A stretch of DNA of 64,000 nucleotides from assembly GCF_003334815.1 (NCBI RefSeq), contig NZ_QOWO01000005.1. One strand, 5' to 3'. This DNA comes from Escherichia coli. Its GTDB lineage: Bacteria; Pseudomonadota; Gammaproteobacteria; Enterobacterales; Enterobacteriaceae. The notes under the pieces were generated by a model that saw only the letters and a list, made by a program, of their open reading frames with translations, was not told where the DNA came from and did not search any database. Made by a program: the position numbers and the translations under genes. Below, piece after piece: positions 2-1,028 of the stretch. The first letter of the stretch is position 1. The number at the start of each line of letters is the position of its first letter.

Positions 2-469
2 GAGTGGCGTCGCTGGCGGCGTTGGATTGTGGGATACGCGGTCTGTATGCGCCTGCATAAAAGACTTTTATTTAGCCGCTTCGGTATCTTCAGTATATTT
101 CCTATGCTGTTGGTTGTGCTTTATGGCGTTGGGATTTATCTCACTACCTGGTTTAATGAATTCATCACCACCGGGCCGCATGGAGTGGTGTTGGCAATGT
201 TTCCGCTTATCTGGGTCGGCGTAGTTTGTGTTATTGGTGCTTTTAGCGCCTGGTTTCATCGTTGCTGGTTGTTGGTGCCTTTAGCGCCGCTTTCCGTTGT
301 GTATGTATTATTAGCTTATGCCATCTGGATTATTTATGGACTTATTGCCTTTTTTACTGGACGCGAACCTCAGCGCGACAAACCCACCCGCTATTCCGCA
401 CTGGTGGAAGCGTCAACCGCTTATTCCCAACCTTCTGTCACAGGAACTGAAAAACTATCTGAAGCTTAA
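2..469 (+). CDS. 3' part of a membrane-protein ORF open to the left window edge (possibly the end of a yaiP-like gene)
   Basis: Frame is stop-free from position 2 to TAA at 467..469; translation is strongly hydrophobic (predicted TM helices). N-terminus lies outside the window. Overlaps the next ORF out of frame. Confidence 0.35.
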   Translation, partial: EWRRWRRWIVGYAVCMRLHKRLLFSRFGIFSIFPMLLVVLYGVGIYLTTWFNEFITTGPHGVVLAMFPLIWVGVVCVIGAFSAWFHRCWLLVPLAPLSVVYVLLAYAIWIIYGLIAFFTGREPQRDKPTRYSALVEASTAYSQPSVTGTEKLSEA

Positions 470-1028
470 TGTTAAAGAGAAAAATATTCAGATTGCAGAC
501 CAGGTAATTATTGATGAAACTGCAGGTGAAGTTGTTATCGGCGCGAATACCCGTATTTGTCATGGTGCCGTTATTCAGGGTCCGGTAGTGATTGGCGCAA
601 ACTGCCTGATAGGTAATTATGCGTTTATTCGTCCTGGCACAATAATCAGCAATGGCGTAAAAATTGGTTTTGCCACCGAGATTAAAAATGCGGTTATTGA
701 AGCGGAAGCAACGATTGGTCCGCAATGTTTTATTGCCGACTCGGTAGTTGCAAACCAGGCATATTTAGGCGCACAAGTACGTACCAGTAATCATCGTCTG
801 GATGAACAGCCCGTGTCTGTTCGAACTCCAGAGGGAATTATCGCTACCGGATGCGATAAATTAGGTTGTTATATCGGGCAGCGTTCACGCCTTGGCGTAC
901 AAGTTATTATTTTGCCTGGGCGAATTATTTCCCCGAACACGCAACTTGGCCCGCGCGTGATTGTAGAACGTAATTTACCTACCGGAACTTATTCACTCCG
1001 ACAAGAACTTATCCGTACAGGAGATTAA
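318..1028 (+). CDS. yaiX: Hexapeptide-repeat (left-handed beta-helix) acyltransferase, YaiX-like; uninterrupted here
   Basis: 236-aa ORF with repeated [LIV]-G-x-x-x-x hexapeptide motifs (VVIGANTRICHGAVIQGPVVIGANCLIGNYAFIRPG...). Stop at 1026..1028 is 1 bp before yaiO. True start uncertain: no in-frame ATG/GTG/TTG downstream of 469. Confidence 0.6.
   Translation: MPSGLFMDLLPFLLDANLSATNPPAIPHWWKRQPLIPNLLSQELKNYLKLNVKEKNIQIADQVIIDETAGEVVIGANTRICHGAVIQGPVVIGANCLIGNYAFIRPGTIISNGVKIGFATEIKNAVIEAEATIGPQCFIADSVVANQAYLGAQVRTSNHRLDEQPVSVRTPEGIIATGCDKLGCYIGQRSRLGVQVIILPGRIISPNTQLGPRVIVERNLPTGTYSLRQELIRTGD

Follow-up and report, generated by a model that had tools for sequence, protein, structure and literature searches.

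A described enterobacterial counterpart of the gene junction analyzed here is holD-rimI, a co-directional, out-of-frame overlap of 32-56 nt that is kept across enterobacterial genera and has a genus-specific exact length (Pallejà et al.). Such overlaps have been proposed to originate by loss and replacement of start and stop codons, with the upstream stop disrupted and the downstream start replaced by a codon inside the neighboring gene (Fonseca, Harris and Posada, 2013). At the protein level, the archaeal bifunctional sugar-1-phosphate nucleotidylyltransferase/acetyltransferases (ST0452, TIGR03992) and GlmU have a C-terminal left-handed β-helix hexapeptide domain that YaiX is predicted to share, and the ST0452 domain has a solved structure and shown acetyltransferase activity. 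The closest described allele is K-12 yaiX' (b4579), which is annotated in MG1655 as a pseudogene of two fragments joined around IS2A. EcoGene reported that repair of K-12 yaiX' leads to a yaiP-dependent clumping phenotype (PMC3531124), which implies that native yaiX gives a working product.

We analyzed this locus in a 64,000-nt stretch of Escherichia coli DNA (RefSeq assembly GCF_003334815.1, contig NZ_QOWO01000005.1), referred to as the window, which covers just the yaiP 3' end, yaiX, and yaiO of the yaiS-yaiP-yaiX-yaiO cluster (Table 1). With fair confidence, we read it as a normal, IS2-free yaiP-yaiX-yaiO operon in which yaiX would start at ATG 336, inside yaiP and in the +1 frame, the overlap being a real, derived enterobacterial feature. 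Ribosome initiation at 336 is what we infer from the anatomy of the junction, its comparative pattern, and frame-specific constraint.

An initial sequence-only reading of this DNA had noted a hydrophobic ORF that ends at 469 and overlaps yaiX in a different frame, and both the ORF and the overlap are as it described. Alignment and annotation identify the ORF as the yaiP 3' end: the window matches MG1655 b0363 base for base and the end of b0363 falls at window position 469. The yaiP product is a GT2 glycosyltransferase with C-terminal transmembrane segments and a tail, and its orthologues contain the Pfam domain Glycos_transf_2. The length of the overlap depends on the yaiX start, amounting to 152 nt from ATG 318, 134 nt from ATG 336, and 23 nt from CTG 447. 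On the other side of yaiX, yaiO starts 1 nt past the yaiX stop and is preceded by an AGGAG within the yaiX 3' end. The gene order PIG-L deacetylase/GT2/LbH acetyltransferase/YaiO β-barrel, which corresponds to yaiS-yaiP-yaiX-yaiO, is present in E. coli and in nine loci with listed gene calls (L019-L028 without L027).

Table 1. Features of the yaiP-yaiX-yaiO region, in window coordinates.
Feature	Position	Strand	Description
yaiP 3' end	2..469	+	Frame 2, open at the left edge; stop TAA 467-469
Longest yaiX ORF	318..1028	+	Frame 0; in-frame ATGs at 318 and 336; in-frame TAG upstream at 312-314
yaiX CDS, best-supported form	336..1028	+	230 aa, intact; predicted stand-alone left-handed β-helix (hexapeptide) acetyltransferase
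Six additional codons of the longest yaiX ORF	318..335	+	ATG 318; '236-aa variant' in some annotations
yaiP/yaiX overlap	336..469	+	134 nt; yaiX frame one base right of the yaiP frame
yaiP patch with suppressed synonymous variation	335..364	+	TAT GGA CTT ATT GCC TTT TTT ACT GGA CGC; begins at the yaiX ATG
CGC Arg codon in the yaiP KPTRY motif	389..391	+	AGG, the yaiX Shine-Dalgarno, in non-enterobacterial relatives
CAC TGG TGG, what remains of an ancestral ATG TGG TGG (MWW) start of yaiX	399..407	+	Orthologue comparison
Stretch evolving like yaiX, also read as an unconserved 22-residue YaiP tail	402..466	+	Frame-wise comparison
CTG, RefSeq PGAP yaiX start	447..449	+	193-aa product WP_024183734.1
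GTAAT, IS2A target site duplicated in K-12	613..617	+	MG1655 alignment and feature table
yaiO, outer-membrane β-barrel	1030..1803	+	TIGR04390, E=1.2e-53

Profile and sequence matches place YaiX as a predicted member of the hexapeptide-repeat (left-handed β-helix) acyltransferase family. Its hexapeptide repeats match PF00132 (Hexapep; E=3.3e-9 and 7.4e-4) and PF25084 (LbH; E=6e-10), and residues 62-219 align over 158 residues with chain positions 241-398 of Sulfolobus tokodaii ST0452 (PDB 2ggo/5z09; phmmer E=8e-23). GlmU C-terminal domains are matched with E values of 1e-8 to 1e-5, and TIGR03992 is matched over profile positions 233-393 with E=1.8e-37, at 129 bits against a curated cut-off of 292. 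Unlike ST0452 and GlmU, YaiX stands alone as a domain with no nucleotidyltransferase half, has an N-terminal WW segment of its own, and is encoded in a PIG-L deacetylase/GT2/LbH/YaiO β-barrel cluster. An AlphaFold2 model built from a 27-sequence alignment shows short regular strands, at a confidence too low to rely on (mean pLDDT 59.9).

Comparison with MG1655 confirms a statement in the sequence-only reading, namely that IS2 splits yaiX in that strain. Direct alignment places an IS2 of 1331 bp between window bases 617 and 618 and shows GTAAT duplicated on both sides of it. The window, which shares the gene and its flanks with K-12, has neither the insertion nor the duplication; it is continuous across 613-618 and the gene is whole. 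Apart from IS2, window positions 1-3400 differ from MG1655 by two SNPs. The idea of an IS2-free lineage also fits what is found in 5426 complete E. coli genomes, where the locus is uninterrupted in 4451 and the K-12 yaiX::IS2 junction occurs in 366, so that the intact allele is the norm. IS2-free yaiX is thus the majority state and an ordinary allele. It has already been described in EcoGene 3.0 (PMC3531124) and by Hongu et al. (2026; PMC13058169), the window allele being the '236-aa variant' group of the latter and the state rebuilt by the EcoGene repair. Its presence in a non-K-12 lineage is accordingly of little import.

Substitution patterns indicate that yaiX and yaiP are both intact and under purifying selection. 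Among seven E. coli strains, variable sites at codon positions 1/2/3 number 5/5/27 in the yaiX-only region and 3/0/9 in the yaiP-only region. The corresponding cross-genus nucleotide differences are 0.24/0.15/0.56 and 0.29/0.12/0.54.

Annotations disagree about where yaiX begins. One and the same DNA has been given three starts, ATG 318 (236 aa), ATG 336 (MG1655 curation), and CTG 447 (RefSeq PGAP), and five are annotated within E. coli when CTG 435 and GTG 504 are included. On the minus strand of MG1655, where the 5' part of yaiX is intact, ATG 318 corresponds to coordinate 382890, ATG 336 to 382872, CTG 435 to 382773, and CTG 447 to 382761. Full-text literature searches for yaiX and yaiP found no account of the yaiX start site or the yaiP-yaiX overlap, and neither gene is mentioned in the main text of the Ribo-RET preprint. 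The sequence-only reading held that yaiX has no in-frame start codon past 469. This is correct for ATG, as there is no Met after residue 7, but GTG codons at 588, 813, and 957 and a TTG at 912 are present. All four lie inside the β-helix domain, downstream of the invariant residues D66, G70, G75, and C81, and are thus not plausible starts. The RefSeq pipeline's CTG 447, which lies upstream of 469, had been overlooked.

A comparison of the junction across 32 loci, including 17 enterobacterial ones, favors ATG 336 as the yaiX start. Distant YaiX homologues of 204-206 aa start with MWW, which aligns to E. coli H28-W29-W30, and an ATG or GTG stands directly 5' of TGGTGG in all nine non-enterobacterial loci. 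The seven non-enterobacterial proteobacterial loci have a yaiP/yaiX overlap of exactly 14 nt, and six of these have AGG 7-8 nt 5' of the yaiX start (Acinetobacter has AGA). When anchored, the DNA reads ...acgAGGTAcgccATGTGGTGG in Pseudomonas, Sphingomonas, alphaproteobacterial, and similar loci, compared with a CGC, CGT, or CGA Arg codon in enterobacteria.

In the 17 enterobacterial loci, KPTRY has a CGN Arg codon, yaiP stops between +16 and +82 (typically at +67), and the codon before WW is a non-start (CAC, TAC, CCT, CGG, CGT, CTA, GCA, and others). Every one of them has an ATG at -66 (±3), formed by yaiP Tyr-Gly codons and followed by an open yaiX frame, though 17/17 overstates the evidence because the loci are phylogenetically related and the ATG is a by-product of a conserved [YH]-G in yaiP. 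Given the YaiP protein and local codon usage alone, the chance of an ATG with an open frame is p=0.04-0.49 per locus (0.09 for E. coli). Intermediate arrangements survive in living lineages, with a yaiP stop at +16 or +31, or, in some Salmonella, Enterobacter, and Superficieibacter loci, with ATGs that precede WW by 2-4 codons.

Synonymous sites of yaiP provide a second line of evidence. The ten yaiP codons from ATG 336 (335..364) have a synonymous codon difference of 0.09, compared with 0.55 for the 96 yaiP-only codons further upstream that could be scored (MWU p=1.3e-6). Of 97 upstream 10-codon control windows, not one is as low, and the value returns to 0.52 downstream. The Gly codon that forms part of the ATG is GGA in 17/17 loci, while in the long ORFs of the window GGA accounts for 10% of Gly codons. 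This patch would comprise the translation-initiation region and the first yaiX codons (MDLLPFLLD). The MDLLPFLLD...NPPAI peptide is itself conserved across genera, which we discounted as evidence of translation: similar peptides occur in the untranslated frame upstream of MWW in Pseudomonas and others, as an alternate reading of the conserved yaiP GREPxRDKPTRY. Evidence for translation of the N-terminal extension is restricted to the synonymous-site test, and yaiX-frame constraint is absent from the middle of the extension (window about 365-398).

A comparison of 14 loci over 402..466 again shows constraint in the yaiX frame, which has an amino-acid identity of 0.56 against values of 0.35 for the yaiP frame and 0.38 for the third; sorted by yaiX codon position, nucleotide differences amount to 0.28/0.29/0.51. 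Synonymous variation in yaiX is 0.53 here and 0.49 downstream, indicating no detectable added constraint from the yaiP tail. The four polymorphisms found at 402-469 among the seven E. coli strains, at yaiX codon positions 1 and 2, are too few to weigh. The downstream frame is thus constrained before the yaiP stop, and a conserved internal ATG coincides with reduced yaiP synonymous variation, two features that were looked for as marks of a long overlap. The sequence-only reading had offered a genuine overlap, a frameshift, or a non-standard start as explanations; the first of these is the best supported.

Predicted anti-Shine-Dalgarno pairing is weak at ATG 336, at -3.1 kcal/mol, compared with about -6 to -7 kcal/mol for yaiO (-7.4), frmR, and frmA, and Hongu et al. 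found no Shine-Dalgarno for yaiX (PMC13058169). ATG 336 lies in an AT-rich stretch whose RNA is the least structured of window 40-1000 (dG -3.9; mean for that interval, -11.2). RNA folding and AT content favor 336 over 318 and 393 and do not separate 336 from 447. Initiation at a near-cognate codon in the ancestral start position was rejected: the codons found before WW (CAC, TAC, CCT, etc.) do not provide one, and ATT 393 lacks a Shine-Dalgarno and sits in structured RNA (dG -16.8).

A yaiX start at CTG 447, which would render the upstream open frame an accident of yaiP sequence, seems to us unlikely. PGAP annotates this start in genomes identical to the window, and 1845 sequences belong to the cluster of the 193-aa product; PGAP is inconsistent for yaiX, however, choosing CTG 435 in BEN2908 and, in 1403KP and GPEC1042, a GTG at 504 that reads GTA in the window. 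At 13 of 14 E. coli-type loci the codon aligned to 447 is NTG (CTG 6, GTG 4, TTG 2, ATG 1; GTA is also seen) and, like ATG 336, it lies in unstructured RNA (dG -3.4), on which basis 447 may serve as an additional internal start. As the main start it is disfavored by the preceding 45 nt (402-446), which evolve as yaiX coding sequence, with codon-position differences of 0.30/0.30/0.54 and identities of 0.58 in the yaiX frame, 0.33 in the yaiP frame, and 0.36 in the third frame. The CTG itself is not fixed, and its anti-Shine-Dalgarno pairing is -1.9 kcal/mol, the nearby AGGA being only 1 nt away and so too close for a Shine-Dalgarno role. Moreover, a protein of 193 aa would be missing the WW motif with which every distant homologue begins, and the synonymous-site constraint at 335-364 would be left unexplained. 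These observations speak against the non-standard start of the sequence-only reading, to which CTG 447 corresponds.

A start at ATG 318, which Hongu et al. (2026) took from a KEGG/GenBank-style annotation, is quite improbable in our assessment. It gives the longest ORF and is conserved in E. whittamii and in every one of the seven E. coli strains. The 236-aa form has also been cloned and confers weak ampicillin resistance on overexpression (PMC13058169), but that construct is vector-driven and so is uninformative on the native start. Among enterobacterial loci, an ATG at the 318 position is confined to Escherichia and a single Citrobacter cronae locus. Citrobacter braakii, Citrobacter FP75, Superficieibacter, Salmonella, and other loci lack it, and all of these keep the ATG equivalent to 336. 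ATG 318 has no anti-Shine-Dalgarno pairing (+0.9 kcal/mol), and yaiP synonymous variation over the codons at 318..335 is at background (0.5-0.7). ATG 318 is thus probably not the main yaiX start.

That one frame is simply wrong, through a frameshift or sequencing error, decay into a start-less pseudogene, or a YaiP-YaiX fusion by +1 slippage on T6 (350-355), is very improbable: the ancestral start codon and Shine-Dalgarno are indeed lost in E. coli, the T6 run lies inside the synonymous-constraint patch, a TAATG at 467-471 overlaps the yaiP stop with a third-frame ATG, and no real co-directional overlap >60 bp was found among 715 examined (Pallejà et al., 2008), but the identical junction occurs in thousands of independent assemblies, there are no indels among the seven E. 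coli strains over window 1-1100, purifying selection acts on yaiX both inside E. coli and between genera, and both frames are homologous to orthologues through the overlap, yaiP to GREPxRDKPTRY and yaiX to the N-terminal WW. The frameshift and pseudogene readings are largely refuted. Programmed frameshifting was rejected for want of a conserved slippery sequence: T6 is broken in E. whittamii, in the Salmonella/Enterobacter loci, and in L023, while the ATG is universal, and A5 (480-484) lies downstream of conserved yaiX-frame sequence. A coupled start at TAATG followed by a -1 slip on A5 fails as well, as ATG 469 opens a 12-codon ORF that is unconserved (ATA in E. whittamii, absent in Citrobacter) and yaiX-frame sequence is conserved further upstream.

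On balance, we lean toward a real 134-nt overlap that arose through loss of the MWW start and its Shine-Dalgarno, with an ATG recruited on the yaiP Tyr-Gly codons and a 30-nt patch of yaiP silent sites frozen as a result. The ancestral state, which Pseudomonas, Acinetobacter, sphingomonads, and further proteobacteria still display, would have had yaiP ending in ...KPTRYxxVVx* and yaiX starting at ATG-TGG-TGG 14 nt before the yaiP stop, with the AGG Arg codon of KPTRY as the yaiX Shine-Dalgarno. Three enterobacterial changes would have followed: the ancestral yaiX ATG was lost (CAC in E. coli), AGG became CGN, and the yaiP stop was lost, so that YaiP would read about 22 unconserved codons into yaiX. 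Initiation of yaiX would have moved to the ATG 22 codons upstream that is made by the conserved yaiP Tyr-Gly codons (T-ATG-GA). The overlap would thus exist because the yaiX start and yaiP stop both migrated from an ancestral 14-nt overlap. As the recruited ATG has only a weak GGA Shine-Dalgarno and lies in an AT-rich, unstructured stretch, yaiX expression is probably low.

The proposed history matches the model of Fonseca et al. in both of its events, which here would have occurred at a single junction, with intermediates visible in living lineages. Like holD-rimI, yaiP-yaiX is co-directional and out of frame, and it is kept from one enterobacterial genus to the next, each with its own exact length, but it is longer, spanning 134 nt when measured from ATG 336 and no less than 68 nt when only the part from the conserved WW motif onward is counted. 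The length-versus-orthologue rule of Pallejà et al. would flag it as a '5' and 3' extension' misannotation, whereas the frame-specific constraint argues that it is real.

We thus consider the long yaiP-yaiX overlap probably real, judging from sequence comparison, and of modest interest in an otherwise ordinary locus. If so, it would be more than twice the length of the longest 'real' overlap of the classic survey (56 nt), and the RefSeq CTG and GTG starts in thousands of E. coli genomes would be wrong, cutting off a conserved N-terminal segment. The conflict among five annotated starts touches anyone cloning or studying YaiX, including recent overexpression-phenotype work. The junction would also stand as a well-supported exception to the rule by which co-directional overlaps >60 nt count as annotation errors, and would illustrate stepwise growth of an overlap, from a 14-nt coupling overlap to 134 nt by loss of start and stop codons, with intermediates surviving.

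Window positions 1-3400 contain the E. coli yaiP (3' end)-yaiX-yaiO-frmR-frmA region. A frame-2 ORF that is open at the left edge ends in a TAA stop at 467-469, and a frame-0 ORF runs from an ATG at 318 (second ATG at 336) to a TAA at 1026-1028, with the yaiO start at 1030. These coordinates confirm the out-of-frame overlap described in the sequence-only reading. The region differs from MG1655 at two SNPs over 3.4 kb (1810 and 3172) and is otherwise identical, which identifies the downstream ORF as yaiX and the upstream ORF as yaiP (b0363), a GT2 glycosyltransferase with C-terminal membrane segments. 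Pfam searches found hexapeptide and left-handed beta-helix domains in yaiX. NCBIfam (TIGR03992, E=1.8e-37) and PDB (ST0452/2ggo, E about 1e-22) matches liken YaiX to the acetyltransferase domain found at the C terminus of bifunctional, GlmU-like enzymes of archaea, though it lacks their nucleotidyltransferase half.

Two further features lie downstream. The stretch at 1810-1860, 3' of yaiO, holds a GC-rich hairpin (GCCGCCC...GGGGCGGC) followed by a ten-C run (1850-1859); one of the two SNPs is at 1810. A perfect 19-nt inverted repeat just 5' of frmR (ATATACTATAGGGGGGTAT / ATACCCCCCTATAGTATAT, 15-nt spacer; 1914-1966) is presumably the frmRAB promoter/operator.

The statement that yaiX is an IS2-split pseudogene in K-12 MG1655 proved correct, as the MG1655 record joins b4579 from two fragments around IS2A. 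Alignment places this 1331-bp element after window base 617, flanked by a 5-bp duplication (GTAAT, 613-617), and shows the insertion to be absent here. Among 5426 complete E. coli genomes, 4916 match a 1100-nt query, 4451 hold an unbroken stretch of at least 80% of it, and 366 contain the K-12 yaiX::IS2 junction. Uninterrupted yaiX is the rule in E. coli. Repair of yaiX' in K-12 is reported to give a yaiP-dependent clumping phenotype (EcoGene 3.0; PMC3531124), and three yaiX states have been described: a fragment of 71 aa in K-12, the '236-aa variant' of other strains and absence of the gene (Hongu et al., 2026; PMC13058169). The intact, IS2-free allele is thus real, ordinary and already known in the literature. 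Natural strains show further lesions at this locus: BEN2908 (APEC) has an internal stop in yaiP (locus L030, 573-1769), SCEC020023 carries an IS1 within the matched yaiP-yaiX region, and NDM_11.16372 carries an ISEc20 between yaiO and frmR (locus L001, 5083-6279).

Existing annotations place the start of yaiX at five different codons.

Annotated yaiX start codons in window coordinates
Start	Protein length	Overlap with yaiP	Source
ATG 318	236 aa	152 nt	KEGG-type annotation, as in Hongu et al.
ATG 336	230 aa	134 nt	MG1655 curation
CTG 447	193 aa	23 nt	RefSeq PGAP, genomes identical to window
CTG 435	197 aa	35 nt	PGAP, strain BEN2908
GTG 504 (window: GTA)	174 aa	none	PGAP, strains 1403KP and GPEC1042

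Within RefSeq alone, this E. coli gene appears with at least three starts and product lengths (193, 197 and 174 aa; L029-L031, strains 1403KP, BEN2908 and GPEC1042, versus L001/L002), two of the starts being CTG, and the protein database has large clusters of 230-aa (1737 members), 193-aa (1845) and 174-aa (1174) forms. No in-frame ATG of yaiX follows 336. The claim that yaiX has no in-frame start past 469 therefore stands for ATG but not for GTG/TTG, which occur at 588, 813, 912 and 957; alignment places these codons within the beta-helix, past invariant residues.

We compared DNA from 15 loci in a species-level genome collection, 10 loci obtained through exact-protein look-ups and 6 further E. 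coli strains. Protein searches and alignment showed that distant 204-206-aa YaiX homologues start with MWW, which aligns to E. coli H28-W29-W30, well 5' of the yaiP stop. The seven proteobacterial loci from outside the enterobacteria (Pseudomonas viridiflava, Acinetobacter, sphingomonads and several MAGs) all share one arrangement, in which YaiP ends in ...GREPxRDKPTRYxxVVx*, the ATG or GTG start of yaiX immediately precedes TGGTGG, and the two genes overlap by exactly 14 nt. The KPTRY Arg codon is AGG, 7-8 nt upstream of the yaiX start, in six of the seven (AGA in Acinetobacter), and this AGG is a Shine-Dalgarno sequence for yaiX embedded in yaiP.

The junction takes another form in enterobacteria, represented by 17 loci (Escherichia, Citrobacter, Salmonella, Enterobacter, Superficieibacter and plasmid-like copies). 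Here the codon preceding the Trp-Trp (WW) motif is never a start (CAC, TAC, CCT, CGG, CGT, CTA, GCA and others; 17/17), the KPTRY Arg codon is CGN (17/17), and the yaiP stop lies farther downstream (+16, +31, +52, typically +67, up to +82). All 17 have an ATG at -66 (±3, owing to indels; window 336) with an open frame to WW. Salmonella/Enterobacter loci L019 and L021, Enterobacter locus L023 and Superficieibacter retain an ATG 2-4 codons 5' of WW and look like intermediates.

The wider cluster also varies. Annotations of K-12-like strains mark the PIG-L deacetylase gene yaiS, 5' of yaiP, as truncated (L001, 1592-2248; L003, 6961-7617), and the small gene ykiC lies antisense in the gap that this leaves. 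Strain 1403KP has an intact yaiS (220 aa, ending 13 nt before the yaiP start; L029, 1-559), as do other genera, in which it abuts yaiP or is a few bases away from it. Citrobacter braakii ATCC 51113 has two diverged yaiS-P-X-O copies (L005, L007), a version annotated on plasmids of E. coli is almost identical to one from an 'Ignatzschineria' MAG bin (L009/L028; P0051), and the 1100-nt query matched 30 places on plasmids in complete E. coli genomes; the cluster appears to move horizontally. In Enterobacter sp. PGRG2 (L023, 2641-2726), YaiX has a C-terminal extension of ~30 residues and, as called, an 86-nt overlap with yaiO, a possible second long overlap in the operon.

Conservation of the peptide MDLLPFLLD...NPPAI does not by itself show translation: the conserved yaiP motif encodes this peptide when read in another frame, and the untranslated frame of Pseudomonas contains similar ones. 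We therefore used frame-specific tests. Across 14 E. coli-type loci, the yaiX frame between WW and the yaiP stop (402-466) has an amino acid identity of 0.56, against 0.35 for the yaiP frame and 0.38 for the third, and nucleotide differences at yaiX codon positions 1, 2 and 3 are 0.28/0.29/0.51. Synonymous variation in yaiX is equivalent at 402-466 (0.53) and in the non-overlapping part (0.49), so the YaiP tail imposes no detectable extra constraint. These patterns mark 402-466 as yaiX coding sequence, with the last 22 YaiP residues as unconstrained read-through.

A complementary signal is found farther upstream. Synonymous variation in the yaiP frame is 0.55 over 96 scorable yaiP-only codons, falls to 0.09 at 335-364 (ten codons from the ATG-forming Tyr-Gly) and is back at 0.52 beyond it (p=1.3e-6, Mann-Whitney; none of 97 upstream ten-codon windows is as low, minimum 0.43). 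The Gly codon at the ATG is GGA in 17/17 loci, whereas in the long ORFs of the window 10% of Gly residues are encoded by GGA. A second constraint beginning exactly at the ATG is the pattern expected of a translation-initiation region and the opening codons of an overprinted gene. Given YaiP sequence and local codon usage, an ATG with an open frame would arise by chance with p=0.04-0.49 per locus (0.09 in E. coli); its presence in all 17 is supportive, although the loci are related and non-independent. Seven E. coli strains have no variable sites at 336-401. Together, the coding signature, the synonymous dip and the 17/17 ATG support a genuine long overlap, one of the options raised from sequence alone.

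One rival is initiation at CTG 447, which has an unstructured context; of the 14 E. coli-type loci, 13 have NTG at the equivalent codon (CTG 6, GTG 4, TTG 2, ATG 1) and one has GTA. This start is probably wrong: PGAP is inconsistent from strain to strain, and it leaves the WW motif, the 335-364 constraint and the upstream coding signature unexplained (402-446: differences 0.30/0.30/0.54 by yaiX codon position; identities 0.58 yaiX, 0.33 yaiP, 0.36 third frame). The suggestion of a non-standard start is disfavoured on the same points. The recurrent NTG at 447-449 and its equivalents (L004-L009, L022-L028) might represent a secondary internal start or simply follow from a Glu codon in the YaiP tail. 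Another rival, ATG 318, occurs outside Escherichia in a single Citrobacter cronae locus among the enterobacterial loci, and the synonymous sites of yaiP are unconstrained there. A YaiP-YaiX fusion through slippage lacks a conserved slippery site. Decay of yaiX is excluded by variable sites in its non-overlapping part (5/5/27 by codon position, seven E. coli strains), which indicate purifying selection. A frameshift or sequencing error, also entertained initially, is excluded by thousands of identical assemblies and by orthologue alignments in which both frames are homologous throughout the overlap and yaiX can be traced back to WW.

We thus infer that ribosomes initiate at the conserved, constrained ATG 336. 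In the enterobacterial lineage, the ancestral 14-nt coupling overlap (Shine-Dalgarno AGG, ATG-TGG-TGG) would have been lost, yaiX initiation would have shifted to the ATG formed by yaiP's TAT-GGA, and the yaiP stop would have been lost. The Shine-Dalgarno at ATG 336 is only GGA (-3.1 kcal/mol, versus -6 to -7 for neighbouring genes), but the codon's surroundings (71% AT) are the least structured in window 40-1000 (dG -3.9 locally versus a mean of -11.2). Initiation is therefore likely low and Shine-Dalgarno-independent, in agreement with the report that no Shine-Dalgarno is visible for yaiX (Hongu et al.; PMC13058169).

Among 715 co-directional overlaps examined, Pallejà, Harrington and Bork (2008) found none longer than 60 bp to be real, holD-rimI (32-56 nt) being the longest real one they could identify. 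Under their length rule, yaiP-yaiX would count as an error of the '5' and 3' extension' type. Overlaps have been described as originating through start- and stop-codon replacement (Fonseca et al., 2013), and yaiP-yaiX would be an instance in which both events occurred at one junction with intermediates extant. Literature searches on yaiX and yaiP found no papers discussing the overlap or the yaiX start, and the MG1655 annotation already implies the overlap. Our analyses add evidence for its reality, propose a route by which it originated, and suggest that the RefSeq CTG and GTG starts for yaiX are probably wrong.
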